A stretch of DNA of 64,000 nucleotides from Sulfuricurvum sp. (GTDB taxonomy: Bacteria; Campylobacterota; Campylobacteria; Campylobacterales; Sulfurimonadaceae). The position numbers were made by a program, and so were the translations under genes. The notes under the pieces were generated by a model that was given only the letters and a program-made list of their open reading frames with translations, ran no database searches and was not told where the DNA came from. Every line of letters begins with the position of its first letter. Position 1 is the stretch's first letter. Below, piece by piece: positions 1 to 61,700 of this stretch. The DNA is taken from assembly GCF_023229695.1 (NCBI RefSeq), contig NZ_JALNYS010000014.1, positions 20,540 through 84,539 of the forward strand, written 5' to 3'.

Positions 1-2603
1 TGGCTGAGTCTTATGATATTGAAAAAGGGGATACGAATGACCCTAATGAAAAAGCAAGATTATTAGACCGTATTGTAGAAAAAGTAACTGCAAATAATGT
101 AGAAAGCATTAAGTTGCTTCAAGTAATAGCATTATTTAAAATGTTTCCAAATAAAGCTGAATTACAGCCCTATAAAAAGATTATTTTTGAACATTTAGGA
201 ATTAATCATGCATCAGCGTCACTCGCGATTAAAGACTTTATAAAAAAAGGAATTATCAGAGAAGGTGGAAGATTTTTATATATCAGTCCAAGACCTGTTT
301 CTATTCATCTATTTAACCAATTTATAGAGATTAATGATTATGAATTTATTAATGAATTGTTTCAAAAACTAAATAATGAAGGTTTGATGAATAGTTTTTT
401 TGAAAAACTTCAAGGTATTCCATTTGACGCACGTCAACACAAGGATTTACTTTTTCAAGTTTTATCGAAAATTACATATGAAGAAATAAAAGATGGATTT
501 GGATCAAAAATATTTTACTCGTTATGTCTAAAAGATCGAGTGCTTTCTATAGAGATTTTAAATAATTTACTCAGAGATAAAACTAAAGATGACTTGTTGC
601 AGCTAAATGATGGAAGAAGATATTTAGTCCATTCGCTTGAAGAACTGATTGCATTTCAAAATACATATTTGGAAAGTGTAAAAATATTGTTCAAACTTGC
701 AAGAGCTGAAAATGAGTCATGGGGTAATAATTCGAAAGGGATATTTATTGAATCTTTTCAATGGATTCTCGGAGGAACAGAAGTTAACATTGTAAAGAGA
801 CTTGAAGTATTAAAAAGTCTATATCAAGAATATATATCTGATGAAGATAGAATTATTTTATTGAACGCATTAAAAAGAGCGTATCCTCAACATAATTATA
901 TGGCAACACATAAAAACCATTCGACTTTCCCAGAAGATATTCCAGAGCATTATCGTCCAACTTCTCAAGAGGAGATTGATCTCTATTTTAAAAAATTAAA
1001 AGAGTTGATAGAGGTTTTTTATAACCTGTCATCTGAAGTAATACAATCGAAAATTATCAATGATTTAATTGACTCATTTAGAATGCTAATACGGTACTCT
1101 CAGATCAATAATTGGATTTTAGATTTTATAGAACAATCAATTAATAAACATACTCAATTAAAGACACATTTTTTTGAAATCCTATCAATATTTCTTGAGT
1201 TTGACAAAGATGATAAATTATCAGACGATATTACAAATCGTGTCAGCAGTTTATATGACAAATATACCAAAGCAGAAAGCATTGATGAGATAAGAGAATT
1301 GTTTTTGAACACGGAAAAATATAGATATTATTCTGAAGAAGTATTTGAAAATCACTGCCAGACTATTGCTCAAGATATTGTGCAAAATAAAAATTTTGAT
1401 GTTTTATTGAACAAAAACACTGCTAACCTCTTTGAACTCGGAAGAGAAGTGGCAAAAATTGATGATGAGTCTAAACTGTATGAAGATATTTTGAATCTTA
1501 TTCCTCTTTTGACACAAAATTCAAGTAATAGATTTGTTTTGGCTTATATTTTTAATAGTAAGATGGGTACTGAAGACAACTATGAAAAACTTTTTAAAGA
1601 AATTTACGCGAAACTAAATGATAAAAGTTTGATGTTTGATTTTATACATTATTCGAAACCGACAGAAATAAGTATGAATTACATATGCAGACTTTTGGAA
1701 AATAAAGAAATAAAATCAGAAGTATTGGAAAACTTGACCTTTGGATTTTGGTTAAGAGAACTTCAAAAAAGTGAATTCATCATTTTTATTGATAAGATTA
1801 ATACCATAATAGAGGATAAATGCGATAGCTTTGATTTATGTATGCAGTATATTCATACAAATAAAGACACGGAATTAATTAAAAAATACACAGAATACTA
1901 TATTGAGCATAATCTATTTGGTTGTATTGGTAAGCGTAGAATGATAACCTATCTGAATGAGATAGTTGATGAATACTTTTCAAGTAATTTTGAGTTGAAT
2001 GAAGCATTACTAGCAAAGGTGTGGGATTTTATTTTAATAGAATTGAAAGGAAAGGGTAAATTTGACGAAAGAACTTTTCAGCCAGTATATAAAATAATAA
2101 AAAGTAATTCAAATTACTTTTGGAAAAATATTAGAGATTTACTTGAAGAATTAAAACCTCAAAAATATCCACTTTATGGAAGTTTTACTCATTTTATGCA
2201 GGGAGGGTATTTATCAGATACATATGAACAATCTATATTTTCATTTATTGACTCAAATCATGTAATAGATTGGTTAAAATCTACTTCTTTTAAAGAAGCC
2301 AAATACATTATTGCTGATACATTGAATATAGATTTTGAAACGGATTCTTTGCCTGAAATCGTTATTCAATTATTAACTGAGTTTTCTGATGACAGAGATT
2401 TATATGCAAGTATCAAATCAAGAAGTGAAGGTTGGACTGGCTCATATGTACCTGTAGCTAATAAAAAAATCTCTAATATTGACAGAATGTTAGAATATTA
2501 TCAAAATAATAAAAATGTGATAGAGTTTTTAAAATGGGCGAAAAAAAGCTTTGAATATCACAGAGATAGAGAACAAATAAGAGATGAAGAGAGATTATAT
2601 TGA
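1..2603 (+). CDS. Large hypothetical protein, 5' end outside the window; possible winged-helix plus alpha-helical-repeat C-terminal region of a STAND-type NTPase
   Basis: The frame of ORF 114..2603 stays open back to the window edge (AESYDIEKGDTNDPNEK... reads through). The TTG at 114 is therefore probably not the real start. AT-rich codon usage. The segment LGINHASASLAIKDFIKKGIIREGGRFLYISPRPVSIHLF looks like a winged helix. The remaining ~700 aa are helix-rich (L/I/K/E/N/F/Y) and contain no P-loop. Confidence 0.5.
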   Translation, partial: AESYDIEKGDTNDPNEKARLLDRIVEKVTANNVESIKLLQVIALFKMFPNKAELQPYKKIIFEHLGINHASASLAIKDFIKKGIIREGGRFLYISPRPVSIHLFNQFIEINDYEFINELFQKLNNEGLMNSFFEKLQGIPFDARQHKDLLFQVLSKITYEEIKDGFGSKIFYSLCLKDRVLSIEILNNLLRDKTKDDLLQLNDGRRYLVHSLEELIAFQNTYLESVKILFKLARAENESWGNNSKGIFIESFQWILGGTEVNIVKRLEVLKSLYQEYISDEDRIILLNALKRAYPQHNYMATHKNHSTFPEDIPEHYRPTSQEEIDLYFKKLKELIEVFYNLSSEVIQSKIINDLIDSFRMLIRYSQINNWILDFIEQSINKHTQLKTHFFEILSIFLEFDKDDKLSDDITNRVSSLYDKYTKAESIDEIRELFLNTEKYRYYSEEVFENHCQTIAQDIVQNKNFDVLLNKNTANLFELGREVAKIDDESKLYEDILNLIPLLTQNSSNRFVLAYIFNSKMGTEDNYEKLFKEIYAKLNDKSLMFDFIHYSKPTEISMNYICRLLENKEIKSEVLENLTFGFWLRELQKSEFIIFIDKINTIIEDKCDSFDLCMQYIHTNKDTELIKKYTEYYIEHNLFGCIGKRRMITYLNEIVDEYFSSNFELNEALLAKVWDFILIELKGKGKFDERTFQPVYKIIKSNSNYFWKNIRDLLEELKPQKYPLYGSFTHFMQGGYLSDTYEQSIFSFIDSNHVIDWLKSTSFKEAKYIIADTLNIDFETDSLPEIVIQLLTEFSDDRDLYASIKSRSEGWTGSYVPVANKKISNIDRMLEYYQNNKNVIEFLKWAKKSFEYHRDREQIRDEERLY

Positions 2604-2625
2604 TTTACGAAATTAAATTCATACC

Positions 2626-3225
2626 ATGACCCCCATCACCGATAACATGGACGTATTCGCCGAAAAATTCGAGAACGTTGATCTCTATGGCAAAAAGATC
2701 ACCAAAGCCGAATTTGATGACTGCACCTTCGTTTCCTGCGATTTCAGCGAGACCTTTTTCTCCTTCTGTAAATTTACCGAATGCCGTTTTGAAAACTGCA
2801 ATCTGAGCCTCATGAAGCTCACCAACACCAAAATGAGCGATGTCGATTTTGTCTCGTGCAAGATGATCGGGATCGATTGGACGATGGCGGATTGGAAGAG
2901 TCTTCTCAATGCCGACCCTTTGCGTTTTCGTGAGTGTATTCTCAATGATAGCAATTTTTTCGGGCTGAATATAGAGGGATTGGTGATGCGGGAATGCCGA
3001 GCCAAAGAGGTTGATTTTCGCAACGGGAGCTTTCAAAAAGCCGACTTTAGCTTGAGCGATTTCAAAGGGGCGCTGTTCGGTAATACCCACCTCGAAGGTG
3101 CCAACTTTACCGACTCCTCTAACACCTCTATCGATATACGCTCCAACCATCTCAAGGGGGCGATATTCAACCGTTATGAGGCGCTCTTTTTACTTGAATC
3201 GATGGGGATTGTGTTGGTTGATTGA
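2626..3225 (+). CDS. Pentapeptide-repeat protein (Qnr/MfpA-like fold)
   Basis: Tandem A(D/N)LxX-type pentapeptides run through most of the 199 aa (e.g. AEFDDCTFVSCDFSETFFSFCKFTECRFENCNLSLMKLTNTKMSDVDF..., ADFSLSDFKGALFGNTHLEGANFTDS). Confidence 0.85.
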   Translation: MTPITDNMDVFAEKFENVDLYGKKITKAEFDDCTFVSCDFSETFFSFCKFTECRFENCNLSLMKLTNTKMSDVDFVSCKMIGIDWTMADWKSLLNADPLRFRECILNDSNFFGLNIEGLVMRECRAKEVDFRNGSFQKADFSLSDFKGALFGNTHLEGANFTDSSNTSIDIRSNHLKGAIFNRYEALFLLESMGIVLVD

Positions 3226-3299
3226 GTTACATTCTTTGCTTGACACGCTAATTCAAAAACACTACAATTGTATCTACAAATACAGAACAAGGCAATCCG

Positions 3300-3530
3300 A
3301 TGAAACAGGCGATTAATATCCGTCTCGAAAAAGAGATGATTGAAGCGTTGGACGAATATGCGTCAGAGCTGGACAAAACACGTACGGGACTGATCGAAAA
3401 AGCGATAGAACTCTATTTTGATACGCTTGATGAGATGGTGGCGGACAAACGGATCGACAATCTCAAAAGCGGAAAATCACACGTCGTATCCCTCGAAGAG
3501 GTATTTAAACAAGCCGGAATCAATGTTTAA
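3300..3530 (+). CDS. Ribbon-helix-helix type II antitoxin (RelB/ParD-like)
   Basis: N-terminal RHH-like INIRLEKEMIEALDEYASELDKTRTGLIEKAIELYF. Its stop overlaps the start of the downstream toxin (ATGTTTAA). Confidence 0.8.
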   Translation: MKQAINIRLEKEMIEALDEYASELDKTRTGLIEKAIELYFDTLDEMVADKRIDNLKSGKSHVVSLEEVFKQAGINV

Positions 3531-3774
3531 AGTCGCATTTGAAAAAGAGGCGCAAAAAGAGTTTTTAAAACTCGCCGATGAGGCAAAAAATCTGATTGCC
3601 AAAAAAATTTTAGACCTGCAATCGGGTAACTTCACCGGAGACAAAGCCCTGAAAGGGAAACACAAAGGGAAATTCCGTAAACGTGCCGGAGATTATCGGG
3701 TGATTTATCTGCGCGAAAACGAACTGGTGCTGATTACGATTATCTGTGTGGCGCATCGCAAAGAGGTCTATTAG
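3523..3774 (+). CDS. RelE/ParE-family type II toxin
   Basis: Internal ATG at 3523 of ORF 3418..3774. The 83-aa product ends ...KGKFRKRAGDYRVIYLRENELVLITIICVAHRKEVY, the typical RelE/ParE C-terminal signature. Confidence 0.85.
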   Translation: MFKVAFEKEAQKEFLKLADEAKNLIAKKILDLQSGNFTGDKALKGKHKGKFRKRAGDYRVIYLRENELVLITIICVAHRKEVY

Positions 3775-3839
3775 CTAAGAGAAAGGATCTCATTGCTGCA
3801 TCATCTTGACATGATGTATTGTAAAGGAGAGAAGTTATT

Positions 3840-4097
3840 ATGAAAAAAATCCCTGAACTAAAAACCGAAGAAGAGATTGCCGAGTTTTGGGACGAACACG
3901 ATTCGGCGGAATATATCGATTGGGATAAAGCCAAACCGGTTCGCCTTACCAAGCTGCAAAAGAGCGCGAAAACGATCTCGATCCGTATGCCGATCGATAT
4001 GATTGAAACGCTCAAAATCCAAGCGAACAAAAACGACATTCCCTATCAGTCGTATTTAAAGATGTTGATTGCGGATGGGTTGAAGGCGCATGGGTGA
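3840..4097 (+). CDS. BrnA-like (CopG/RHH) antitoxin with no adjacent BrnT
   Basis: MKKIPELKTEEEIAEFWDEHDSAEYIDWDKAKPV...KTISIRMPIDMIETLKIQANKNDIPYQSYLKMLIADGL matches the BrnA pattern (FWDxHDS ... ISIRLP ... IPYQSLIK). AAGGAG lies upstream. Confidence 0.7.
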   Translation: MKKIPELKTEEEIAEFWDEHDSAEYIDWDKAKPVRLTKLQKSAKTISIRMPIDMIETLKIQANKNDIPYQSYLKMLIADGLKAHG

Positions 4098-4811
4098 TTC
4101 GTTAGGTATCTCTTCTTGAGTTAATATCTGATACTCCCCCTCTTTTAAATCCCCCAGTCTCAAATCTCCGAAGTGTGAACGGTGGAGTGCGGTGACATGA
4201 TTCCCCACCGCCGCAAACATCCGCCGTACCTGATGGTAGCGCCCTTCGGTGATTTCGAGTGCCACGTGAGTATCATCGAGTATCGTAAGCTTTGAAGGGA
4301 GGCAGGGGGTTTTTTCACCGTGCAACATCAACGTTCCCGAAGCAAATATTGCTGCTTCGTCTCCGTTTAGCGGTCGATCCAACGTCGCTTCGTACACTTT
4401 TGGCACTTTATGTTTGGGGGAGGTGAGGCGGTGTAGCAGTGCGCCGTCGTCGGTGAGGAGCAATAATCCGCTGGTGTCCTTGTCGAGCCGCCCTATGGTC
4501 GATATTTTCGGATCGCGCATTCTCCATCGTGGCGGGAGGAGGTCGTAGACGAGTCTCCCTTCTCCTTCATCATGGCTACAGACCAGCCCTGCGGGCTTGT
4601 ACATCAAAATTACCATCCCAGAGGGGGGATCGAGGGGCTCGCCCTTGAAGCGGATCTCTTCGTGCAGCACTTTGGTGTCGGGTTTGAGAGGGAGATTTTC
4701 GGTGTGGGTGACTATGCCATCTTTGATGAGTGCCGCGACTTCGCGGCGCGCGCAATACCCCAGGGAGCCGAGGAGTTTGTCGAGGCGAACTTTAGAATTT
4801 GAGGTTTTCAC
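4056..4811 (-). CDS. Pseudouridine synthase, RsuA/RluB/RluE family (S4 domain + catalytic domain)
   Basis: N-terminal S4-like RLDKLLGSLGYCARREVAALIKDG. Catalytic GRLDKDTSGLLLLTDDG and RYHQVRRMF motifs. Confidence 0.85.
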   Translation of the reverse strand: MKTSNSKVRLDKLLGSLGYCARREVAALIKDGIVTHTENLPLKPDTKVLHEEIRFKGEPLDPPSGMVILMYKPAGLVCSHDEGEGRLVYDLLPPRWRMRDPKISTIGRLDKDTSGLLLLTDDGALLHRLTSPKHKVPKVYEATLDRPLNGDEAAIFASGTLMLHGEKTPCLPSKLTILDDTHVALEITEGRYHQVRRMFAAVGNHVTALHRSHFGDLRLGDLKEGEYQILTQEEIPNESPMRLQPIRNQHL

Positions 4812-4817
4812 AATTTT

Positions 4818-5471
4818 TTAAGAAAAAAGTTTGAGAAATGCTTTGAAATCAGTAAGGGCTTCATGCTCAAAATTCCAAATAGGTTTTTTGATGGCAATCT
4901 CATTTTTACATTTTCTATCAGCTTGTGTTTGTTCTCTTTTTGTGCATGTATCGTATCTTAGATAGTTATTGACCCAAAATTTGTTAAATTCTTTATCACT
5001 GATTTTTTTGCCATTTTTATCAAGACATTCTCTCCAAGCATCTAAACAATCTGCATAAGTTGAGTCTTCTAATTTTACAGTTTTAAGGAGTGTTTCGAGT
5101 TCGCCGTGTCCATCTACATTGGTGATATAGCAGATAAATTCAAGATCAAGTTTATCACTTCTTATGGGTGTATTAATATTTTTGATTTCAATAGTATCAT
5201 CAAACTTTTTAACAACAGAGTCGATCTGTGCTAACCGATTTTCGATACCTTCTTTATCAGCATCGATAACAATGCCGATTTTAGTGTAGTCATCAAATTT
5301 AATCTCTTCGAGACATTGTAAAAGTTTTGCTTCTGAAAGACCGTTTAAGCATTCATAATCATCTATCTGGCATATTGGCTGATTAACTTTTATGTCAATA
5401 GTCAAAGATTCACTTAATGCCTCAATAAAGTATTTGTCGTTATGACTCTCTACAATCAAAAGATTACTCAC
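4818..5471 (-). CDS. Toprim-like protein (DUF4276/DUF3226/DUF4435 class), partner of the upstream ATPase
   Basis: AT-rich. N-terminal LLIVESHNDKYFIEAL (Toprim-like Glu) and IGIVIDADKEG (DxD). The GTG start overlaps the ATPase stop by 8 nt. Confidence 0.55.
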   Translation of the reverse strand: MSNLLIVESHNDKYFIEALSESLTIDIKVNQPICQIDDYECLNGLSEAKLLQCLEEIKFDDYTKIGIVIDADKEGIENRLAQIDSVVKKFDDTIEIKNINTPIRSDKLDLEFICYITNVDGHGELETLLKTVKLEDSTYADCLDAWRECLDKNGKKISDKEFNKFWVNNYLRYDTCTKREQTQADRKCKNEIAIKKPIWNFEHEALTDFKAFLKLFS

Positions 5472-6429
5472 CTCTAAATTCTCCGTTATGAGATAGTGAA
5501 TATTCTAATTGCTCTTTGTTTCGTTGTTTCACATTAATTTGGTTGGTTTTTTTACTTTGATAAAATTCAAGATATACACCAGCATCTTCACAATTTACTT
5601 CATTAAATGCTTCAATGCATTCTTTTGAATGGGTGGTAGCAAATACTTGGCAATTTACATCTTTTGAAATTTGAAAAATCAGTTTCCAAATATTTTTAAT
5701 TTGGGCATAGTGAATACCATTGTCTATTTCATCAATAAAAAGCTGGCCATTTTTAGATCCATAAAGAGCACAAATTATTGAGATAAAATGTTTTAAACCA
5801 TCCCCAAATTCTGTAAGATCAATGTATTCGTCATTTATTTTACATTTTGGCTTATCGCCTATTACTTTGAAAAATTCAATCTTTGGATCAAAATTATTAA
5901 TTAAATTATTAAGTTCATTTTCTTTGTCTTGTTCTTGAATAGCAATATAATTGGCAATTAATTCTTGGTCAGAAAATCCAAAGTTATCAATATAGTCAAC
6001 ATTTGAACCTACATACTCTATTGAAAAATCATTTGCATTGATGATTTTTTCATTTTCATTAATCATGAATAGATATTCTTTAATACCATCTTTATTTGAA
6101 AATTGAAATTTGATTTTTTGATTGTTTGAAGTTGTCGAATAATATTTTGTTGATTCTAAATATTCTTTTGGATTAAATTTTTTGTTTGTTGAGATAACCT
6201 CATTAAGGATATTAATATTTTCTCGTGCAACTTTAATATGTGCAAGAGAGGCCGCGAATGATGCAACATTTTTTGTAAACGCATGAATGTAGCATGCTTC
6301 TAAAAAAGCAGTTTTACCTATATTGTTTTTGCCACCGATAAGATTAACGCGTCGCAAATTATTTACTTCAAATTCATGGAAGCATTTAAAATCAACAATG
6401 TTAATCCATTTTAAAAAATGTTCTTCCAT
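5464..6429 (-). CDS. Small ABC/SMC-type AAA ATPase (AAA_21-like)
   Basis: Walker A GGKNNIGKTAFLEA. Walker B/D-loop QLFIDEIDNGIH. H-loop ATTHSKE. AT-rich composition. Confidence 0.8.
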   Translation of the reverse strand: MEEHFLKWINIVDFKCFHEFEVNNLRRVNLIGGKNNIGKTAFLEACYIHAFTKNVASFAASLAHIKVARENINILNEVISTNKKFNPKEYLESTKYYSTTSNNQKIKFQFSNKDGIKEYLFMINENEKIINANDFSIEYVGSNVDYIDNFGFSDQELIANYIAIQEQDKENELNNLINNFDPKIEFFKVIGDKPKCKINDEYIDLTEFGDGLKHFISIICALYGSKNGQLFIDEIDNGIHYAQIKNIWKLIFQISKDVNCQVFATTHSKECIEAFNEVNCEDAGVYLEFYQSKKTNQINVKQRNKEQLEYSLSHNGEFRGE

Positions 6430-6499
6430 ATTAATCCTTTGATTGTGTATTAAAAAAATGTACTTATTCTACAGTGCATCATCTAAAAAAATGTAATAG

Positions 6500-8335
6500 T
6501 CATGACAACTCTTCAAGTTTTTCCTCGTATTCGGCTTCGATCCGCGTGATCTCGTCACTCGCGATTTCGAGCCTCTCGAACAGCTCTTCAATCATTTTCT
6601 CATCCTCGCCGACCTGCTTGGAGAGTTCGAGGAGCTTGGAGGTCTCCCCCTGATTCGAATAGGTCGTTAGGAGTTCATGGGAGGTTTTGAGTTTCTCTTC
6701 GAGCTTCATGATCGTACTCTCGCAATAATCCGCCTCTTTTTTCAGCGGGCTGAGGAGTTTGGAACGCTCCTGAATCAATGCGGCACGTTGTTGTTTGTTC
6801 TCTTTTTTATTGACGTTTTGGGTCACTTTGGCAGGTTTGGGGGCGTCGGTGATCTCTTCATCCCATCCGATTTTATCCAAGAATTCGTCGTAGTTGCCGT
6901 CGAAAAATTCCGCATTACCTTCGCGAAAGATGATGAGCTGGTCGGCGAGTTCGCGGAGCAGCATTTCGGAGTGGGTGACGAGGACGACGGAGCCCTCAAA
7001 CCGCTTTAGCGCGTCGCAGAGCGAATCGATCGACTGCATATCGAGGTGGTTGGTCGGCTCATCGAGGAAGAGGAGGTTGGCGGGGGTGGCGATGATTTTC
7101 CCCAGCATAACGCGGCTGCGTTCTCCCCCTGAGAGGATGGAGATCTTTTTGTCGGCATCGTCGCCGCTGAACATCATCGTTCCGCAGATACCGCGAATGC
7201 GGACGTTGGGGAGGGTGTTGTCGGCGCTTTGGATTTCGTCGGTGATCGTGCGGTTTTTGTCGAGGCGGTCGATGTTGGTCTGGCCGAAATGGGCGATGGC
7301 GGTGGAGGGGTGAGCGGTGATCTCTCCATTGGGTGTCAAAACTCCGGCGAGGGTGTTGAGCAATGTCGATTTCCCTTTGCCGTTTTTACCGATGATGGCG
7401 AGGCACTTTTTCGCCTCCAGTGCAAAGGAGAGGTTTTTAAATAATAGCTCATCCGGGGTGTATCCGAAGGAGAGATCTTTGACCTGCATGATCACTTTTG
7501 CGGGGATAGGCTTATAGGAGAACGAAAACGAGAGATCTTTTTCACCCTCCAGTGACTCCATGACCCCCATCTTGTCCAGCTCTTTTTGTTTGGATTGGGC
7601 GAGTGTCGCGGTGGAAGCGCGGGCTTTGTTGCGGGCGACAAAATCCTCTAACTCGGCACGCTTTTTATCGTGGTTGATTTTGGTTTTCTCATACAGCTCA
7701 TCTTCGCCCGCCATCATCTCGTAATATTTATGGCTGTTCCCTTTGATGATACTGACACAGCGGCGGCGAAGTCCCATCGTGTGGGTCGTGACCGAATCCA
7801 TAAAATCGCGGTCGTGGGTGATGAGGATCACTTCCCCCTCGAAACTGCGGATAAAGCTTGCAAGCCACCGGAGCGAGACGATGTCGAGGTAGTTGGTCGG
7901 CTCATCGAGCAGCAGGAGGTTGGGTTCGGTGACAAGGAGTTTGACGAGGTTGAGACGGATCTGGTACCCCCCCGAAAAGCTCAGCGGGTCACGGTCCAGA
8001 TCCTCCTGGGTAAATCCGAGGCCGAAAAGGATTTTTTCGACGCGGTAGACTTCGTGCTCCATATCGCCCTCTAGAACCGATGCACACTCTTCCCGGACGG
8101 TTTTATGGGTAAAATGGAGGTGTTGTCGGAGGGTGCCGATCCGGTAGTTTTTGGGGAGGATCACTTCGCCGCCCTCATAAGGCTCTTCGCCGAGGATGAT
8201 TTTAAAGAGGGTCGATTTCCCCGTGCCGTTGCGCCCGACGAAGCCCACTTTGTTCCCCGCGTTCAGTTTTAGCGAGAGGTTGTCGAACAAGACGCGCGTT
8301 CCGTAGCTTTTGGTGAGGTTGTTGATCTGAATCAT
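6500..8335 (-). CDS. ABC-F family ATPase (two ABC domains, C-terminal coiled coil)
   Basis: Two Walker A motifs (GRNGTGKST, GKNGKGKST). Two signature motifs (FSGGYQIRL, LSGGERSRV). No TM segments. Lys/Glu-rich C-terminal tail. Confidence 0.9.
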   Translation of the reverse strand: MIQINNLTKSYGTRVLFDNLSLKLNAGNKVGFVGRNGTGKSTLFKIILGEEPYEGGEVILPKNYRIGTLRQHLHFTHKTVREECASVLEGDMEHEVYRVEKILFGLGFTQEDLDRDPLSFSGGYQIRLNLVKLLVTEPNLLLLDEPTNYLDIVSLRWLASFIRSFEGEVILITHDRDFMDSVTTHTMGLRRRCVSIIKGNSHKYYEMMAGEDELYEKTKINHDKKRAELEDFVARNKARASTATLAQSKQKELDKMGVMESLEGEKDLSFSFSYKPIPAKVIMQVKDLSFGYTPDELLFKNLSFALEAKKCLAIIGKNGKGKSTLLNTLAGVLTPNGEITAHPSTAIAHFGQTNIDRLDKNRTITDEIQSADNTLPNVRIRGICGTMMFSGDDADKKISILSGGERSRVMLGKIIATPANLLFLDEPTNHLDMQSIDSLCDALKRFEGSVVLVTHSEMLLRELADQLIIFREGNAEFFDGNYDEFLDKIGWDEEITDAPKPAKVTQNVNKKENKQQRAALIQERSKLLSPLKKEADYCESTIMKLEEKLKTSHELLTTYSNQGETSKLLELSKQVGEDEKMIEELFERLEIASDEITRIEAEYEEKLEELS

Positions 8336-23421: not shown

Positions 23422-23988
23422 ATGAAGAAAACGATTAAAACCCTTTCCGGTGTTGTTTTGATCGTTATGGGATTCGGGCTGATCGTTGCGCTGGCCTTTC
23501 CGTCGCTGAGCGATTCGGCCCATGCCGGACGGAGCGAAAAAAAAATCCCCCTTGAATTTTCATTTTTGAAAGAGGAACACGCCCCGCTGGTATTGATCTA
23601 TTTCGGATACGTCGGTTGTACCCGGGTCTGTACCCCGGCACTGAGCGATCTGGCCCAAATTTACCGTCTCCGAAAAATCGCCTCCGCAGATCATCTGCCC
23701 GCACTCTGGTTTGTCAATATGACCCCCCGGATGGATTCTGCCTCAGTGCAGAGCTGGGCGGAACATTTTGATTCTGATTTTAAATCCTATGCCCCGAGCG
23801 AGAGCGAGCTGCAAACGATTTCCCAAACTCTGAACCTCGTTTATACCAATCTCGGCGTCAAAGCGGAACACATGCCTTATGCGTATTTGGCTAAAAAAAC
23901 CGATATCGGCTATGAACTGGTTTACATTTATACATCTTCACCGTATAATCGCACAGTAATGTTACAAGATATGGAGGCACTGCAATGA
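23422..23988 (+). CDS. SCO1/SenC-like thioredoxin-fold protein (membrane-anchored, CxxxC + His)
   Basis: N-terminal TM segment. [17 protein letters not shown] (compare SCO FGYTxCPDVCP). Downstream AEHMPYAYL (the conserved His position of SCO proteins). Confidence 0.75.
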
Positions 23989-25508
23989 ATTTTAATTTCC
24001 TTTTTCCGGCCCATGACACCTCTCACAGCCCTGATATCCGATTGCGGCTTCATGAAGATTTTGTTAAAGCCGATAAAGTTATGCTGATTATCGGAATAGT
24101 CTCCTTCCTCGCTGTTGCGTTCGTAACCTCGATTCGCTACTCCACCTACTCGTTCGGAATGATTAACGGCGCATTGGCTCTGGGACTTATCGTGATCGCT
24201 TTTATGGCGTTTCGAGGGACGACGATCGGGCGGATTATCATTGCACTTGGGCTGTCGATTTTTCCGATGATTATGATCCAGCAGCAGCTGGGGATGATCG
24301 AGATGCATTTTGCCCTTTTTTTTATGGCCGCTTTTTTGGCGATTTATAAAGACATCATCCCCGTTCTGACGGCTACGGTGGCGGTCGCGTTTCACCATAT
24401 TCTTTTCTTTTTTCTCCAGCTCAATCATGCGTCGATGTTTGGTTTTGAGGTGATTGTATTTGCCAGCGGCTGCGATGTCTGGATTTTATTGACCCATATT
24501 ATCATGTTTACGGTACAGGTTATCGGCCTCGTGTACATTATCGTCAATACGACTCACCAGTTTATCAAAAGCAACGAACTTCAGATAGCATCGGATAACA
24601 ACGTCAAATTGATGGAAGAGGGGATCCGTCAGGATGCCCATATGGTTCAGGAGGCGGTCGGTATCGTGGCGGAGGTTTCGAAAGGGATACTGGATCGCAA
24701 TCTCAAGGCGGTTCCGGCAAATTCTCAGTTGAGAGAACTGCGGGATGTTTTTAATACCATGTTGGGCGATCTGCGCCGGATGGTTGGCCCCAATATCGTT
24801 GAAATTACCCGTGTCGTTGAAGCGTACGGCGATTTTGACTTTACCAAACGGATTTCCCACAACAGCGGAAAAATCGAACAGCTGGTGAATAAGCTCGGCG
24901 ATGATATTTCGGCGATGCTGCGTACCAATCTGGCCAACGGGACCGAAATGGATGAGAGTGCACAGCGCCTTAAGAAAAACGTTGACGAATTAGCCAGCTC
25001 TTCCAAAGAGCAAGCCAAAGGGATCCAAAAAACCTCCCAGCAGGTCGATCACATGACCCAAAGCGTTGAAGGGGTTCTTCAGCGTACGCAGGAGGTGAGC
25101 CATCAGTCCGAAGACATTAAAATGATTATTACCGTCATCGGCGACATCGCGGATCAAACCAATCTGTTGGCATTGAATGCGGCTATCGAAGCGGCACGGG
25201 CAGGGGAACACGGAAGAGGATTCGCCGTTGTCGCCGATGAGGTGCGAAAACTGGCGGAACGGACCCAAAAATCACTCTCTGATATCAATGCAAATGTTGG
25301 ATTATTGGTGCAGTCGATTAACGATATCGGTGATGCGATCGAACATCAAGCCGGAGGGATCCGTCAGATCAATCACATCATCAGCGAATTTGAAGGGGAG
25401 ATTCAAAACAATGCAAAAATCGCTTCCAATACCGATGCAATCGCGAATGAGGTATTTGTGATGGCGGATCGCGTTCTAAGCGACGTCAAATCGAAAAAAT
25501 TTAATTGA
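23985..25508 (+). CDS. Methyl-accepting chemotaxis protein with an unusual 6-TM His-containing N-terminal input domain
   Basis: C-terminal MCP signalling core [37 protein letters not shown]-terminal ~200 aa with about 6 TM helices carrying IEMHF, YKDIIPV and [15 protein letters not shown] overlap with the SCO-like gene. Confidence 0.9.
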
Positions 25509-43800: not shown

Positions 43801-44028
43801 CTTTTAAGCCTTATTTCCGAGACTAAAACAAATGAAATTTAAATCCTGCAAAAAACGGAGCCATTCGGCCACCTGTGACGTTTTTATCCGGCCACCCATG
43901 ACGGTGGCATTCGGCCACTAAAAACGGTCATTATCCGGCCACTTTTTAGGAAAAAACGTCACGGAGTTTTTATGAATGAAGGGTGTTTTCTGAATTGACT
44001 ACACTGCCGTTTAAAAACGGGAGTGTTG

Positions 44029-45582
44029 ATGAGGAAGATACAGATGAAAAAAGTACGTGAAGCTCTACGGCTTCATATTGGGATGAACCTTTCGGTTCGT
44101 CAGGCACACAGAGCTGCAGGGGTTCCAAGAACAACCATACAAGACTATATCCGCCGCTTTAAGTCTTCCGCAATGACGATTGACGAAGTGGAAGGGATGA
44201 GTGATAATGTCCTCCATTCCAGATTGTTTCCCGAACAGCGCAGTGCCACACCTTCCAAAAAACCATTACCCGATATGCTCTACCTGCATAACGAACTCAA
44301 GCAGCGTAAACAGACGAAAGTGACTCTCATGCTGCTATGGGAAGAGTACAAAGAACAATATCCCGATGGATACGAGTATACCCAGTTTAGGGTTCTCTAT
44401 AAAAAGCATGTTGAAAAGCTGAATCCTTCGATGCGTCAGGTCCATTTAGGAGGAGAAAAAGTATTTGTCGACTACAGCGGTCTGACGATGCCGATTTACG
44501 ATATCCAAACCGGCGAGATCGTCAAATGTCAGGTTTTTATTGCGGTTCTGGGTGCTAGTGGCTATACCTTTGCCCATGCGACTCCATCCCAGAAACAAGA
44601 AGATTTTTTTCAAGCTCATGTATTGGCATACCGATACTTTGAAGGAGTACCGCGAATCGTAGTGAGCGATAATCTCAAATCAGCGGTGATTACTCATTCT
44701 AATGGAGAAATCGTTATCAACGAAGGATACGCCGACCTTGCCCGCCATTACAACATGGCGATAGAACCTGCACGTCCCTATAAACCCAAAGACAAACCGA
44801 AAGTCGAGCAAGGAGTTCAGGGGATTCAGCGCTATATCCTCGCACGCTTTCGCCATCGGAAGTTTTACAGTGTCGATGAGCTCAATGAATCGATCGGTCC
44901 GCTACTGGATGATTACAACAACAAGATCGTCAAACATTTGGAACAAAGCCGCACCCAGATGTTTGAAACACTGGATAAGCCCCATCTCAAACCACTTCCC
45001 GCCAACCGTTACAGCTACAAAGAGTTCAAAGTTGCACGAGTCAACCAAGATTACCACATCACTTTGGACAAATGCAATTACTCTGTCCCTTATGGGTATC
45101 TCAAAGAACTTGTCGATGTGCATTACAATTCACACAGTGTAAAAATCTATCACAACAACACTTTGATCGCCACCCATCCAAGACTGCGACGCACGGGCGA
45201 TGTCTCCACACTCAAAGAGCATATGCCCTCGTCGCATCAATATGTCCATGAAAAAATGAATCCGGATCGATTACGCAACTGGGCGAAGAATATCGGTTCC
45301 AATGCATCCGCATTCGTTGAAGCACGCTTCGCCGCCGCTGAATATGAAGCAACTGCCTACCGTCCGATCATCGCTGTCCTTTCACTGGCCAAGTTGCATG
45401 GAAAATCAGAATTGGAACTGGCGCTGATGTTTGCATTGGAGAAGCAGACTCTGAAGACGAAGTCGATCAAGTCGATTCTGGAGAAAAAACTTTATCCGGG
45501 TAGAAGTGCCAACAACATCATGACAACTCCTCCTATCCTAAATACCCATGACAATCTTCGTAATGCTCAAGAGTATCAATAA
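44029..45582 (+). CDS. istA: IS21-family transposase IstA
   Basis: N-terminal HTH (LSVRQAHRAAGVPRTTIQDYIRR), DDE-type core (VFVDYSG..., VVSDNLKSAV..., KPKVEQGV). ~515 aa. The start could be 44029 or 44044. Confidence 0.9.
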   Translation: MRKIQMKKVREALRLHIGMNLSVRQAHRAAGVPRTTIQDYIRRFKSSAMTIDEVEGMSDNVLHSRLFPEQRSATPSKKPLPDMLYLHNELKQRKQTKVTLMLLWEEYKEQYPDGYEYTQFRVLYKKHVEKLNPSMRQVHLGGEKVFVDYSGLTMPIYDIQTGEIVKCQVFIAVLGASGYTFAHATPSQKQEDFFQAHVLAYRYFEGVPRIVVSDNLKSAVITHSNGEIVINEGYADLARHYNMAIEPARPYKPKDKPKVEQGVQGIQRYILARFRHRKFYSVDELNESIGPLLDDYNNKIVKHLEQSRTQMFETLDKPHLKPLPANRYSYKEFKVARVNQDYHITLDKCNYSVPYGYLKELVDVHYNSHSVKIYHNNTLIATHPRLRRTGDVSTLKEHMPSSHQYVHEKMNPDRLRNWAKNIGSNASAFVEARFAAAEYEATAYRPIIAVLSLAKLHGKSELELALMFALEKQTLKTKSIKSILEKKLYPGRSANNIMTTPPILNTHDNLRNAQEYQ

Positions 45583-50088: not shown

Positions 50089-50388
50089 ATGTTGCAGCTA
50101 TATACTGAACAAGAGATGTTGTCTCGTCTGGCAGAGATGTTTGAAAAAGAACGTATTAAGCAAAATATCACCCAGAAAGAGCTTTCATCACGTGCAGGGA
50201 TTCCACTCCCTACCTACCGTGCATTTTTAAAAAATGGTACATTGTCTGCTAAAAATATGTTCAAATTACTCTTTGTTTTGCAGTTGGATGAAAAGGGCGA
50301 GAATCTCGTTAAAGAACGTGCATTAAAAACATTGGAAGACATCCGTGTGAATGTTTCACAACAAGATCGTAAAAGGGTTCGTAAATGA
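50089..50388 (+). CDS. hipB: XRE-family HTH antitoxin (HipB-like)
   Basis: ERIKQNITQKELSSRAGIPLPTYRAFLKNG. Overlaps the hipA start (ATGA). Confidence 0.75.
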   Translation: MLQLYTEQEMLSRLAEMFEKERIKQNITQKELSSRAGIPLPTYRAFLKNGTLSAKNMFKLLFVLQLDEKGENLVKERALKTLEDIRVNVSQQDRKRVRK

Positions 50389-57689: not shown

Positions 57690-59201
57690 ATGAGAAAAAT
57701 TTTATTTTTATTGCTTCTGATCTCCTTCTCGTCGGTGGGTGTTTATGCACAGGCAAAGAGACAGGTTTTTATTCTTCACTCCTATTCTCAGGAGTACACC
57801 TGGACCAAATCTCAGCATCAAAATTTCATCTTTGCTTTCGATAATACGTTTCCCTCCGTCAATTTTGCAGCCGAATATCTTGATACGAAACGGGTTAAAA
57901 TGGACGGCGTATACGAGAATTTCATGCTGCGCTATCTTCAGGAAAAATACAAAGGGTATCGTCCCGATATCATCTATGTGACCGACGACGATGCCTTGAC
58001 ATTTTTCATGCACCACCGCAGCGAGTTATTCCCCCAGGTTCCGATCGTTTTTTCGGGGGTCAATAATTTAAACCTTCAGGGGAGACTCGATTCGGAGAAA
58101 TTTACCGGTGTTTATGAAACCAAAGATATTCTCCCCAATATCGATCTAATCCATCAGCTATCGCCGCAAACGAGGGATATCTGGATTGTCGGAGATGCAT
58201 CCACCACCTATCAATCGATTGAAGAGGAGATTCGGCGAAAAATTAAAGATTTTACGAAATACCGTTTCCATTTTTTATCGGGGGAACGGATATCGGATAT
58301 CGTCGATCATCTTCCCCGTCGGCAAAAAACCTTTGTAATTCTGACGACGATCGGAAAATGGACCGACGAGAGAGGGGATAATATGGCGATCAAAAATTCG
58401 ATCGCCACCTTGTTGAAACTCCCCAATATCGTTTTATTGAGTATGGAAGATGCCTATGTGGGGAGCGGTGCGGTCGGAGGTTTTGTAAGCAGCGCAAAGG
58501 AGCAGGGGAGCGGTGCGGCGGGATTGGCTATCCGCTATTTGCGAGGGGAGCCGTTTCGCGATATCCGCTCTCTCGACAAAAGTCCGAATATTTATATGTT
58601 TGACCGCAATGCATTAATCCGTTCGCGATTGATTCTTTCGGAGTATACCGCGCGAAACGCAACGATGCTTTATCCGGAAAAAAGTTTTTTTGATCTTTAT
58701 CAAAATATACTGATCAACGTGCTGTTTGTGTTATTTCTCCTGTTATTGATTTTCAGCGTCTTTGCTTTCTTTTTGTTTCGTGAAAAAAATCGTCAAATCG
58801 AGTTTCATAAACACGATTGTACGGAGTTTCGAACCCTCTCGGCAAAACTGAAGAATCTGTTTGAAACGGTGGAAAATAGCTTTCATCTTGGATACTGGCA
58901 GTGGGAACTCGGGGACGGTAGCGTCGTCTGTTCGGACGGCCTCGGGAAAATACTCCAAACGGATACCGGCGACGTGAGGGATATCGATACGATGATGCTG
59001 TCGATTTATCCTGCGGACAAATCATTGCTTCACACCATGATTAAAGAGGTGATGGAAACTTGTTCGGTCCGAAAATTTCACCATAAAATAGTGGCTCAAG
59101 ACGGCAACGTCGAATCCGTCGTCCATCGGATTTCCCCGATTACAAATGAGGAGGGGGAGATTAAAACTCTCATAGGTTTGGTGCAGAAACTTGATCTCTA
59201 A
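57690..59201 (+). CDS. Sensor protein: periplasmic ABC-substrate-binding-like domain + TM + single PAS, no output domain
   Basis: Signal peptide. RQVFILHSYSQEYTWTKSQ... (typical of PF04392-like sensor input domains). A TM segment at ~aa 340-365. C-terminal PAS (GYWQWELGDGSVVCSDGL...). Ends 11 nt into the next gene. Confidence 0.7.
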   Translation: MRKILFLLLLISFSSVGVYAQAKRQVFILHSYSQEYTWTKSQHQNFIFAFDNTFPSVNFAAEYLDTKRVKMDGVYENFMLRYLQEKYKGYRPDIIYVTDDDALTFFMHHRSELFPQVPIVFSGVNNLNLQGRLDSEKFTGVYETKDILPNIDLIHQLSPQTRDIWIVGDASTTYQSIEEEIRRKIKDFTKYRFHFLSGERISDIVDHLPRRQKTFVILTTIGKWTDERGDNMAIKNSIATLLKLPNIVLLSMEDAYVGSGAVGGFVSSAKEQGSGAAGLAIRYLRGEPFRDIRSLDKSPNIYMFDRNALIRSRLILSEYTARNATMLYPEKSFFDLYQNILINVLFVLFLLLLIFSVFAFFLFREKNRQIEFHKHDCTEFRTLSAKLKNLFETVENSFHLGYWQWELGDGSVVCSDGLGKILQTDTGDVRDIDTMMLSIYPADKSLLHTMIKEVMETCSVRKFHHKIVAQDGNVESVVHRISPITNEEGEIKTLIGLVQKLDL

Positions 59202-59775
59202 AAAAGCGGTTCTCGCAATGGTCGTATTGACTCTTTTTGCGATGGGGGCCCCATTGCTGTTTTCGGCCCTTTTTTCGAATCAGAATCAGGGAAAAATCGA
59301 AGTCAACCGGCCGATTGAGGCAGAGTACCTGAGGGGGGGAAAAGAAGAGCTGCAACTCGTTTTTTTCGGCTATGTCGGATGTACGAAGATATGTACCCCT
59401 ATTTTGCATCAGTTAAGCGATTTTTATCAATCGAAAGCGTTTGAACCGTTGAAGGGGAGTGTCGGATTTACCTTTGTCAATCTGATGCCCGAGGTCACTC
59501 CCGACCAACCCGGAATATTTGCCCAGTCGTTTAATCCGGCGTTTCGGGGAGTCTATTTGACGCAGCGCCGGTTAATGGATATTGATCGCGATTTCAACCT
59601 GTTTTTTTCAAAGAGTATCCAAGATGCCGGCGAAATCAACCATAGCGATTACGTCTACCTCGTCCGTACGGAAAAAAACGGCGATTTGAAACTGATCACC
59701 ATCTACATGACCCATCCGCTGAAAAGGGATACCATTGTAGAGGATATTCTCGCATACCAAAAGGGGATGAAATGA
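59191..59775 (+). CDS. SCO1/SenC-like thioredoxin-fold protein, paralogue of 23422..23988
   Basis: LVFFGYVGCTKICTPIL (CxxxC) and INHSDYVYLV (conserved His). N-terminal TM segment. An alternative ATG start lies at 59218. Confidence 0.75.
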   Translation: MISKKAVLAMVVLTLFAMGAPLLFSALFSNQNQGKIEVNRPIEAEYLRGGKEELQLVFFGYVGCTKICTPILHQLSDFYQSKAFEPLKGSVGFTFVNLMPEVTPDQPGIFAQSFNPAFRGVYLTQRRLMDIDRDFNLFFSKSIQDAGEINHSDYVYLVRTEKNGDLKLITIYMTHPLKRDTIVEDILAYQKGMK

Positions 59776-61700
59776 ACCGATCCATGACGAATTTGTTTAC
59801 ACTCCCGAAAATTCCGCCATTTGCACGTGAAAATTTTGATGCGAGTTTTGTCCAGGCAGACAAAGTGATGATGGTACTGCTCCTTGTACAGTGGGCGATT
59901 GCCACGTTTATCACCTCCGTCAGTTTTGATACCTATCTGTACGGTTTCATTAGCGGGGGGAGCATTACCCTCAGCGCTTTGGGGGTATACCGCTATTATA
60001 AAGGGACGCAGCTGATGCGTGTCGTCGCTGCGATTGCGATGATGCTTTTTTCGGTTGTCTATATTCAGCAGCATTACGGCCGAATTGAAATGCATTTTCA
60101 TGTTTTTATCGCGATGGCCATCTTATCGTTGTACAAGGATATCGTTCCGGTTGTCGTTGCGGCGATGACGACGATACTGCATCACTTTGTCTTTAATTAT
60201 CTTCAGTTGTATGAGGTGTCGTTGTTTGATATGCCGGTCATGGTGTTCAATTACGGGTGCGGTATCGATATCGTCTTGCTGCACGGCGTATTTGTACTCG
60301 TCGAAGTGATTGTGATCGCCTATATTATCAAGCTTCAGATCGAATACGGGGTGGAACTGAACCGGAGTGAAAATCAGATTTTGGGGCTGAACGAAGAGCT
60401 CAGCTACACCTCGATGCACGATACCCTTACCGGGCTTCCCAATCGCCAGAGCCTCCGTTCGAAACTCAACCTGATTTTGGCCAATGCCGATCGGAATCAG
60501 AAGAAATTTGCCGTTTTATTTCTCGATCTGGACCATTTTAAAAATGTCAACGATACCCTCGGACACGTCGTCGGAGATGCATTGCTTAAAACCGTTGCCA
60601 AAAAACTGACATCGATTGTCCGTGCCAATGATGTGGTCTCCCGAATCGGCGGGGATGAGTTTATCATCATTCTAAACGAGGTCAAAGAGAATACGGCACT
60701 GGAAAATGTCATCATCAAAATTCTTGAGGCATTCCGGAAAGAGTGGATTATTCAGGGCCATTTTCTCCGATTGTCGGTGAGTATCGGGGCCTCCGTCTAT
60801 CCGGACGATTCGAAAGAGATCGATGAACTGATGAAATTTGCCGATATCGCGATGTACAAAGCCAAAGCCGAGGGGCGCGATCAGTTCAGCTTCTTTACCG
60901 GCGAACTCAACCGTAAAATTCATGAAGAGGTTGAAATCGCCAACGATATGTTCCGCGCTCTGGAGGAGGAGGAATTTCTCCTCTATCTTCAGCCCAAAAT
61001 TGAGATTGCAACGGGCAAAATCATCGGGGCCGAAGCACTGATCCGCTGGAATCATTGTACCAAAGGGCTCATTTATCCGAACAGCTTTATCCCTATCGCC
61101 GAAAATAACGGGTTCATTTTAAAACTGGGGACATGGATTTTGTACGAAACGGCGCGGATGATCCGACGTCTGGAGAGGGCCGGTTATAACGACATCCATA
61201 TCTCCTGTAACGTATCGACGCGCCAGTTTCAAAATCTCAATATGTATTCCGATATCGACACGGCTATCCGCGAACACGGGATCAATCCGAATCTTTTCGC
61301 GATCGAAATTACCGAAAGCGTCATGATGCAGTATCTTGAAGTGACCCTCGAAGTGCTCAAAAAAATCAAAAATCTCGGAGTCCATATCTGCATGGACGAT
61401 TTTGGGACAGGGTATTCATCGCTCTCCTATCTTCAGAAATTTCCGATCGATTCGTTGAAAATCGATAAAAGTTTTGTAGACGATATCTCCGAAAACGGCG
61501 ATAACGAACACATTCTGATCAATACAATCATTGCAATGGGGCAGACGCTGAACCTTCATGTCATCGCCGAAGGGGTCGAAGAGAGCTACCAGGAAGAGTA
61601 TCTCAAAAGTCGCGGATGTTCCTATTATCAGGGGTACTATTTCTCAAAACCGATCGGGGAAGAGCGTTTTTTCGAGCTTTTGGCCCGAAACCGTTCTTGA
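59772..61700 (+). CDS. GGDEF-EAL protein with the same 6-TM His-containing input domain as the MCP at 23985
   Basis: The N-terminal domain carries IEMHF, YKDIVPV and LHHFVFNYLQL. RIGGDEFIIIL, GAEALIRW and the EAL-domain DDFGTGYSSLSYL follow. ATGA overlap with the SCO-like gene. Confidence 0.9.
   Translation: MNRSMTNLFTLPKIPPFARENFDASFVQADKVMMVLLLVQWAIATFITSVSFDTYLYGFISGGSITLSALGVYRYYKGTQLMRVVAAIAMMLFSVVYIQQHYGRIEMHFHVFIAMAILSLYKDIVPVVVAAMTTILHHFVFNYLQLYEVSLFDMPVMVFNYGCGIDIVLLHGVFVLVEVIVIAYIIKLQIEYGVELNRSENQILGLNEELSYTSMHDTLTGLPNRQSLRSKLNLILANADRNQKKFAVLFLDLDHFKNVNDTLGHVVGDALLKTVAKKLTSIVRANDVVSRIGGDEFIIILNEVKENTALENVIIKILEAFRKEWIIQGHFLRLSVSIGASVYPDDSKEIDELMKFADIAMYKAKAEGRDQFSFFTGELNRKIHEEVEIANDMFRALEEEEFLLYLQPKIEIATGKIIGAEALIRWNHCTKGLIYPNSFIPIAENNGFILKLGTWILYETARMIRRLERAGYNDIHISCNVSTRQFQNLNMYSDIDTAIREHGINPNLFAIEITESVMMQYLEVTLEVLKKIKNLGVHICMDDFGTGYSSLSYLQKFPIDSLKIDKSFVDDISENGDNEHILINTIIAMGQTLNLHVIAEGVEESYQEEYLKSRGCSYYQGYYFSKPIGEERFFELLARNRS

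Follow-up and report, generated by a model that had tools for sequence, protein, structure and literature searches.

An apparently undescribed six-helix membrane input domain and its genetically linked SCO-like partner in Sulfuricurvum and other bacteria

A 64,000-nt stretch of DNA from Sulfuricurvum sp. (assembly GCF_023229695.1, contig NZ_JALNYS010000014.1, positions 20,540-84,539 of the forward strand; hereafter the window) carries a unit of two genes twice: a gene for an SCO-like protein is followed by a gene for a sensor whose N-terminal domain is predicted to form six transmembrane (TM) helices with a cluster of conserved histidines. As judged from sequence, this two-gene unit is conserved over hundreds of genomes, and the SCO subfamily is dedicated to these sensors rather than to oxidases, since its genes adjoin a sensor gene in 96% of the testable loci and the two partners have diverged together. 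The reading that we favour for the unit, tentatively and at just short of an even chance, is a copper-dependent intramembrane sensor with a dedicated SCO-type partner.

Results

Two paralogous gene pairs

The first-pass annotation of the window had reported an SCO-like gene joined to a chemoreceptor gene, and a second SCO-like gene joined to a GGDEF-EAL gene, each through an ATGA stop/start overlap, and open reading frame (ORF) calls, Pfam matches and reading of the junctions located both pairs there, all on the forward (+) strand. In pair A, the gene for SCO-like A (23422..23988, 188-aa ORF containing AEHMPYAYL) overlaps the gene for sensor A (23985..25508, 507-aa ORF) at 23985..23988. The 6-TM His-cluster domain of sensor A (23985..24554, aa 1-190, delimited by an AlphaFold2 model and invariant columns) is joined to a methyl-accepting chemotaxis protein (MCP) signalling domain (25059..25457, aa 359-491; PF00015, 127.2 bits). 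In pair B, the gene for SCO-like B (59191..59775, 194 aa, with a TTG start and an in-frame alternative ATG at 59218) overlaps the gene for sensor B (59772..61700, 642-aa ORF) at 59772..59775. Here the 6-TM His-cluster domain (59772..60341, aa 1-190; 286.9 bits against the family hidden Markov model, HMM) is followed by GGDEF (aa 215-371, 171.8 bits in Pfam) and EAL (aa 391-627, 229.9 bits) domains, which together occupy 60414..61652. The signature motifs RIGGDEF and GAEALIRW are intact in the translation of sensor B, and its catalysis is a prediction.

An HMM scan of all window ORFs returned exactly two copies of each partner. SCO-like A and SCO-like B share 28% identity (E 4e-26), and sensors A and B share 38% (E 1e-36) in a region confined to residues ~15-186, beyond which no similarity between the two sensors was found. 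The sequence similarity between the pairs is far above chance, and pairs A and B are best described as paralogues from an old duplication of the whole pair as a unit. Pair A groups with the MCP-type pairs and pair B with the GGDEF-EAL-type pairs of other genomes, and it is this clustering by lineage, together with the co-divergence of the partners (see below), that points to an old duplication after which each sensor kept its cognate partner. A recent local duplication was ruled out by the 28% and 38% identities and by the clustering of each copy with its own orthologous lineage elsewhere.

Linkage and co-divergence of the two genes

The linkage was analysed in both directions. In the forward test, 80 loci were fetched from a genome collection by the sensor domain, and 79 of them were testable, the remaining locus lying at a contig edge. 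An SCO-like gene was adjacent in 65/79 testable loci: it was directly upstream on the same strand in 57 loci, divergent and immediately upstream in 6, and convergent and immediately downstream in 2; 14 loci had no SCO-like gene nearby. In the reverse test, 80 loci were fetched from an independent metagenome collection with an alignment of 29 SCO-like proteins; 5 lay at contig edges and could not be tested, and a sensor was adjacent in 72 of the 75 testable loci (96%). The sensor was immediately downstream on the same strand in 70 loci (71 with one ORF start corrected), and one locus was an operon of sensor-histidine kinase, response regulator and SCO-like gene. Among the others, an insertion sequence (IS) element followed the SCO gene in one locus and the SCO gene stood alone in two. 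This arrangement therefore recurs in 137 loci outside the window (65/80 via the sensor and 72/80 via the SCO-like protein), and it spans Campylobacterota, Balneolales, and gamma- and deltaproteobacterial metagenome-assembled genomes (MAGs). With ORF starts as called, the 4-bp overlap was present in 37 of the 57 co-directional genome loci and in 27 of the 70 metagenome loci.

Pairwise identities among the SCO-like proteins were strongly correlated with those among the adjacent TM domains (r = 0.871, 67 pairs), and 0 of 2000 permutations in a Mantel test reached this value. Chance adjacency or simple synteny was ruled out by the reverse search (72/75) in an independent collection together with the linkage in several phyla. 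Thus the linkage goes beyond a local duplication, as the first-pass annotation had supposed, and it is bidirectional, present in several phyla and accompanied by co-divergence. The same annotation had called the pairing obligate, which was too strong: the linkage is conserved in the core clade, but it is not obligate across the superfamily, given an actinobacterial branch (see below) and the ~14 core loci in which no SCO-like gene is adjacent. In locus L151 (338-4043) the gene order is sensor-histidine kinase (703 aa), response regulator (349 aa) and, third, the SCO-like gene.

The 6-TM domain

An AlphaFold2 model of the domain was built on a 16-sequence alignment (predicted local distance difference test, pLDDT, 87.3; predicted TM-score, pTM, 0.84). 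The predicted TM helices of sensor A were at about residues 32-51, 55-75, 80-100, 108-121, 124-146 and 165-189, with a short beta-hairpin in the TM5-TM6 loop; the first helix of the model spans residues 16-51. Among 82 family members, Lys and Arg residues numbered ~8.4 in the predicted cytoplasmic segments and ~1.0 in the periplasmic loops, and because these counts favour the cytoplasmic segments, we predict an N-in/C-in topology with the conserved Glu and His residues in the outer leaflet, which is consistent with the cytoplasmic output domains. The longest periplasmic loop in these 82 members was <=18 residues, which means that the sensor has no periplasmic ligand-binding domain. The about six TM helices first noted at the N-terminus of the MCP were therefore backed both by the model and by the positive-inside counts.

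We then compared 168 sequences of the core clade and 121 sequences of the actinobacterial branch. Positions G103, E106, H108, H110, Y121, D123, H137, H138 and H171 were invariant or nearly so, and the conservation of the sensor histidines, initially noted from the two window copies, extended to 289 sequences of two deep branches, with H108, H138 and H171 invariant or nearly so and H137 nearly invariant. The corresponding codons in the window are E106-M-H108-F-A110 at 24300-24314, H137-H138 at 24393-24398 and H171 at 24495-24497 in sensor A, and E106-M-H108-F-H110 at 60087-60101, H137-H138 at 60180-60185 and H171 at 60282-60284 in sensor B, all on the + strand. The core clade additionally has Q99, Q100, Q145 and Y161, and C163 (in NYGCG of a periplasmic loop) was present in 105/168 core members (63%), the others having S, T or A. 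By the predicted topology, E106, M107, H108 and H110 at the start of TM4, H137 and H138 in TM5 and H171 in TM6 are in the outer leaflet. A second conserved cluster (D30, R83 and Y121-K122-D123) is at the cytoplasmic face, where Y121 and D123 are predicted at the TM4-TM5 turn. The strongly conserved polar residues of the sensor domain are classic metal ligands, with a predicted position in the periplasmic leaflet, and on the basis of topology we infer that the Glu, Met and His residues of the outer leaflet may form a single site. These sensor residues were equally conserved in SCO-linked and unlinked loci.

Searches against known families and structures were negative. In the window proteins, the 6-TM region had no Pfam or NCBIfam match up to E = 10, and no Pfam match at E <= 1e-5 was found on it in any of 83 diverse family members; the Pfam models of MASE1-9, 5TMR_LYT, 7TMR-DISM, HisKA_7TM and other membrane sensor domains gave no match on the TM region in either set. 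Neither a sequence-profile search of the PDB nor a Foldseek fold search against it found a match for the region (best Foldseek E 1.3, TM-scores <=0.41). When 8 full-length members were searched against NCBIfam, all matches started after residue ~165-200 and were below the curated cut-offs. Literature searches found no prior description of the 6-TM domain or of its SCO pairing. The suspicion voiced at first reading, that the domain lies outside defined families and is not MHYT, MASE or 7TMR-like, agrees with these Pfam, NCBIfam, PDB-profile and Foldseek results, the latter part as far as Pfam profiles go. The 6-TM domain thus appears to be an undescribed, widespread family of integral-membrane input domains, with MASE10 set apart by description only.

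The size of the family depended on the search. A word-indexed search found 25 relatives of the domain. An exhaustive profile search, run over 1.84 billion cluster representatives, gave 6404 matches at E <= 1e-3, of which 4539 passed E <= 1e-10 and 319 passed E <= 1e-30. A motif-seeded scan with one genome per species gave 480 loci, mainly from Sulfuricurvum and Sulfurimonas, with further loci in Sulfurospirillum, Balneolales, a thiotrophic gammaproteobacterial symbiont and deltaproteobacterial MAGs. The nearest relatives of the window copies were in Sulfuricurvum MAGs, with 76-79% identity in the domain and a common TPR/trpC/SCO/MCP/ATP-grasp synteny, and there were two to four paralogous pairs per genome.

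The outputs were diverse. Among the 83 diverse members we counted MCP (37), HATPase (31), HisKA (25), GGDEF (6), EAL (4), SpoIIE PP2C (5) and HD_5 (HD-GYP, 1); the kinase members were often hybrids with receiver (REC) and Hpt domains, and PAS or HAMP linkers were frequent. The outputs of the 80 genome loci plus the window were GGDEF-EAL (34), MCP (32), histidine kinase (9) and GGDEF (3). By NCBIfam, the histidine kinase members resemble BarA/TorS-type hybrids. With at least 5 output classes among the 83 members, the idea of a portable input domain, proposed from two fusions only, was confirmed. In the representatives P0037 and P0050, a PAS domain connects the 6-TM domain with a PP2C phosphatase that resembles SiaA and a kinase module that resembles SiaB, an architecture that extends the outputs to partner-switching-type signalling.

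The SCO-like partners

SCO-like A and SCO-like B matched the SCO1-SenC model (PF02630) with 33.8 and 41.4 bits, against a Pfam cut-off of 22.8, and the SCO-like proteins matched the SCO proteins 2k6v, 4wbr, 6n5u and 2rli in the PDB at E 4e-7 to 1e-3. The SCO copper site consists of two Cys and a distal His (PMC7558416). In the window these residues are C66 (23617-23619), C70 (23629-23631) and H150 (23869-23871) of SCO-like A and C64 (59380-59382), C68 (59392-59394) and H151 (59641-59643) of SCO-like B, as read in the sequence of the + strand. The CxxxC motif and the distal His align with the copper ligands of the solved structures 2k6v and 4wbr (T. thermophilus Sco and B. japonicum ScoI). Residues C66/C70/H150 (A numbering) were kept in 66-67 of 68 subfamily members, and C64/C68/H151 (B numbering) were invariant in 29 diverse members. 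The upstream proteins are therefore bona fide members of the SCO family with an intact predicted copper site. Both window proteins have an N-terminal hydrophobic stretch (signal or anchor), which was found in 49/68 members under a strict criterion, and the distance from this stretch to GCxxxC had a median of 36 residues. This order, an N-terminal stretch and then a predicted thioredoxin-type SCO domain, suggests a periplasmic protein, which would be membrane-tethered if the stretch is an anchor and not a cleavable signal peptide.

Compared with canonical SCO1, SenC and ScoI, which serve heme-copper oxidases and NosZ, the SCO-like subfamily shares the Pfam family, the CxxxC motif with the distal His and a putative N-terminal membrane tether. 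However, it is short (~185-200 aa), it has GC-T/x-x-x-C-T/x-P where canonical SCO has CPDVCP, and FVN replaces the (S/V)DPxRD stretch. From these motifs the subfamily is a divergent branch of SCO1/SenC, and its client would be a signalling protein, whereas the canonical client is the CuA or CuB centre of an oxidase.

A second branch without an SCO gene

The second deep branch of the 6-TM domain was found in Actinomycetota (Acidimicrobiia), and nearly all of its members were annotated as 'hypothetical protein' or generically, for example as 'signal transduction histidine kinase'. No Pfam model covers their TM region. This branch has extra His residues at positions 30, 99 and 161, and none of the 121 sequences has a Cys in the TM5-TM6 loop (0/121). 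The actinobacterial form is a stand-alone protein of ~275 aa, whose gene abuts or overlaps a downstream gene for a REC-GAF-histidine kinase or a REC protein, and in another context the sensor gene is 8 bp upstream of a PAS gene (loci L081 4001-6474, L083 4001-5193 and L084 4001-5280). No SCO neighbour was found in the 4 actinobacterial contexts examined. A thioredoxin-fold gene upstream in L084 was considered as an SCO gene and rejected, as it encodes a cytoplasmic peroxiredoxin. A decisive role of Cys163 in the partnership with SCO was only partly supported: the SCO-less branch does not have this residue, but it occurs in just 63% of the core clade, and equally so in linked and unlinked loci.

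Neighbouring genes

When 1049 neighbouring ORFs were clustered, no PCuAC, CopZ, Cu-ATPase or oxidase gene recurred near the pairs. The recurring neighbours were a periplasmic-binding-protein-like protein of lineage B, generic PAS/GGDEF proteins, syntenic 2-oxoacid:ferredoxin oxidoreductase genes and antisense artefacts. The first of these is the third gene of lineage B (57690..59201, + strand, 503 aa; PF04392 ABC_sub_bind, 27 bits), and its stop overlaps the TTG start of SCO-like B. The protein combines a signal peptide with a periplasmic ABC_sub_bind-like domain, a single TM helix and ~140 aa of cytoplasmic tail; this tail is PAS-like by eye and had no Pfam PAS match, and the protein has no output domain. 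A homologue immediately precedes the pair in the same orientation in 56 of ~160 loci. It is the sole conserved extra partner, in lineage B only, and might serve the GGDEF-EAL protein as a second co-sensor.

Two sensors that lack the dedicated SCO-like gene were next to a different SCO gene. In L075, a 6TM-PAS-PAS-GGDEF sensor (4557-6812, + strand) is divergent from an operon (1638-4095, - strand) that contains a 262-aa SCO protein (PF02630, 33 bits) and heme-copper oxidase subunit I (PF00115, 497 bits). In L063, the same 262-aa SCO gene (91-879, - strand) is divergent from a similar sensor (1315-3594, + strand), and the contig ends before the oxidase position. The arrangement in L075 makes a link of the sensor to terminal oxidases possible.

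In the window, multi-PAS GGDEF proteins are encoded upstream of the pair B operon at 51891-54506 (-) and 55045-56706 (+), and the surroundings of pair B look like a c-di-GMP signalling neighbourhood. Also upstream of this operon is an orphan winged-helix (Trans_reg_C) protein (56888-57592, +), whose first ~150 residues had no receiver-domain match. Between the pairs are a Mu-type/rve transposase (44023-45579, +) and a HipA-family toxin kinase (50385-51635, +), which suggest a mobile or variable region. At 114-2600 (+) there is an 829-aa ORF without a Pfam match at E <= 1e-5.

Discussion

On the copper-sensor reading, the SCO-like protein would bind its cognate sensor from the periplasmic side, probably forming a stable subunit in a 1:1 ratio, and would deliver copper to, or hold copper in, the intramembrane His/Glu site. 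The copper centre would then bind a small membrane-permeant ligand or change its redox state; O2 would be the likeliest ligand in gradient-dwelling sulfur oxidisers, and NO, CO, sulfide and ethylene are possible. The resulting helix movement would be relayed via TM6 to the cytoplasmic output, so pair A would control CheA through its MCP domain and pair B would control both synthesis and hydrolysis of c-di-GMP. The SCO-like protein is possibly a stable subunit and not just a catalytic chaperone, because every sensor with an SCO partner has its own co-diverging one and many of the pairs have the 4-bp overlap. In this scheme we infer the physical interaction, copper as the metal, its role as cofactor rather than as signal, and the identity of the stimulus. 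It is also possible, with the balance leaning mildly against it, that this is the first family of signalling receptors with its own copper chaperone, in which a stoichiometric SCO partner and a copper centre that senses O2, NO, CO, sulfide, ethylene or the membrane redox state drive chemotaxis, c-di-GMP, two-component and PP2C outputs.

Several points weigh against copper-dependent sensing as outlined here. A purely catalytic chaperone would need no co-diverging paralogue for each sensor, no other copper-handling gene recurs near the pairs and none was found among the window genes examined, and about 14/79 core-clade sensor loci have no adjacent SCO gene. In addition, the actinobacterial branch (4 contexts) keeps, and even enlarges, the His cluster in the absence of an SCO gene. 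In the sensor itself, Cys163 is present in just 63% of core members, position 110 is Ala in the sensor of pair A, and the spatial clustering of the His residues is backed by topology alone.

The division of labour could also be the reverse, with the SCO-like protein as a co-receptor that senses Cu(I) availability or the periplasmic thiol-redox state and the 6-TM domain mainly as transducer. SCO binding would depend on state, or copper would be handed over to the 6-TM domain, in a manner resembling solute-binding-protein-dependent chemoreceptors and kinases. A co-diverging SCO paralogue for each sensor fits the specific, stable interface that such a co-receptor would have, the translational coupling suggests 1:1 stoichiometry, and the sensor itself lacks a periplasmic domain; SCO proteins have a thiol-disulfide oxidoreductase/redox role besides copper delivery (PMC7558416). 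However, the His/Glu cluster is kept in the SCO-less actinobacterial branch, and because the cluster is even richer there, the membrane site should have an intrinsic function, which weakens a pure co-receptor model. Since the cluster is kept without SCO, the membrane site can presumably be filled without a dedicated SCO protein, and this branch also shows that such a protein need not be essential for filling the putative site. For sensing one metal, it would moreover be an unusual investment to keep two to four pairs in a genome and to connect them to taxis, c-di-GMP, kinase and phosphatase outputs. We consider the co-receptor unlikely.

A distinctly less probable explanation is that the domain binds heme b through two His ligands, for example H138 and H171, or that it monitors the quinone pool, with the SCO protein as an oxidoreductase acting on C163 or as a redox relay. 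Three helices do carry four to five conserved His residues, the SCO-linked core has Cys163 in 105/168 members whereas none of the 121 SCO-less actinobacterial sequences has a loop Cys, and SCO proteins can be oxidoreductases (PMC7558416). But the predicted topology puts the His residues in one layer near the outer face and not in ligand pairs, the HH doublet cannot give both axial ligands, and the extra actinobacterial His residues (H30, H99 and H161) are more in keeping with a metal site of several His than with heme. The distal His of SCO, a copper ligand unneeded for redox chemistry, is kept in 67/68 members, and Cys163 is S, T or A in 37% of core members. Pfam and Foldseek searches gave no match to a cytochrome b or ferric-reductase-type fold or family, and the GGxxNPF quinone motif is absent from both window sequences. 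Very unlikely, finally, is a site for Zn, Fe, Ni or proton (pH) sensing with the SCO protein as an accessory, for example for oxidase assembly under sensor control: the ligand set (5 His, Glu, Asp and Tyr) is not specific to one metal, an SCO-less branch exists, and the two unlinked sensors of L063 and L075 adjoin a different SCO gene, in L075 with a COX1 operon, but the 96% reverse linkage and the co-divergence mark an SCO subfamily dedicated to sensors, and no oxidase genes recur beside the pairs.

For most membrane-embedded bacterial sensor domains the ligand is unknown, and the present family, which is large (thousands of clusters at 50% identity), has stayed unannotated despite a very clear invariant ligand set. 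In the core clade, the SCO partner has a well-understood chemistry, that of Cu(I)/Cu(II) and of thiol redox, and so provides a testable hypothesis on the cofactor of an orphan sensor domain; the results also allow a new domain to be defined for Pfam/InterPro, along with a new subfamily of SCO. If copper-dependent sensing is true, the clients of SCO proteins would extend from respiratory enzymes to signal transduction, and there would be a second, independently evolved copper-based transmembrane gas/redox sensing besides MHYT and ETR1. Such sensing could then also account for the way in which sulfur oxidisers among the Campylobacterota (Sulfuricurvum, Sulfurimonas) find their position in counter-gradients of O2 and sulfide.

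Among known systems, SenC/PrrC of Rhodobacter is an SCO-family protein genetically associated with the 6-TM redox-responsive kinase RegB/PrrB, whose signalling it influences, and the main role of SenC is cbb3 oxidase assembly. The present pairs likewise tie an SCO protein genetically to a 6-TM sensor. However, NCBIfam showed no similarity to RegB/PrrB on the TM region, and no such model was among the 25 best families listed per histidine kinase member. Unlike RegB, both window sequences lack the quinone motif mentioned above, and unlike SenC, the SCO-like subfamily adjoins a sensor in 96% of loci. The SenC/PrrC-RegB precedent cited in the first-pass annotation thus stands as an analogy, but not as a relationship between the TM domains. 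Background on SCO, SenC and PrrC is given in PMC7558416.

Like MASE1-12, the 6-TM domain is a multi-TM input domain of unknown ligand, recognised by the several classes of output to which it is fused. MASE10 shares the six TM helices and has HD-GYP and PP2C outputs; it has conserved Cys/Ser/Trp in its loops and Arg/Asp/Lys/Asp in the TM region and is always followed by HAMP (bioRxiv 10.1101/2021.11.05.467447). By that description only, it differs from the present family in having no His cluster, and HAMP occurs in just 7/83 family members here. An SCO partner is reported for none of MASE1-12.

The ETR1 ethylene-binding domain of plants and cyanobacteria has a Cu(I) cofactor in its TM helices, dedicated copper trafficking and kinase-type outputs; it has 3 TM helices, Cys65 and His69 are the ligands, and copper comes via the P-type ATPase RAN1. 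On the favoured reading, the family described here would likewise be an intramembrane copper sensor with a dedicated copper route and kinase-type fusions, but it is unrelated in sequence, has 6 rather than 3 TM helices, and would rely on an SCO partner rather than on a P-type ATPase.

The MHYT domain (PF03707), as in CoxC of Afipia carboxidovorans, needs copper for CO/O2 sensing and has Met, His and Tyr residues near the periplasmic face (PMC11347149), and a dedicated chaperone gene goes unmentioned in that paper. In MHYT there are 7 TM helices, and TM2, TM4 and TM6 each carry an MHYT motif at the C-terminal end, three in all, whereas the present domain has 6 TM helices with a single MHF and the non-repeated elements ExHxH, YxD, HH and H, and matches no Pfam model up to E = 10. 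Both are integral-membrane, promiscuous input domains, MHYT being stand-alone or fused to histidine kinase, GGDEF, EAL or PAS, and both have conserved Met/His/aromatic residues near the periplasmic face, which in the 6-TM domain are the M-H-F at the outer end of a TM helix. By analogy, MHYT would be the closest functional precedent for a copper-dependent intramembrane sensor of this kind.

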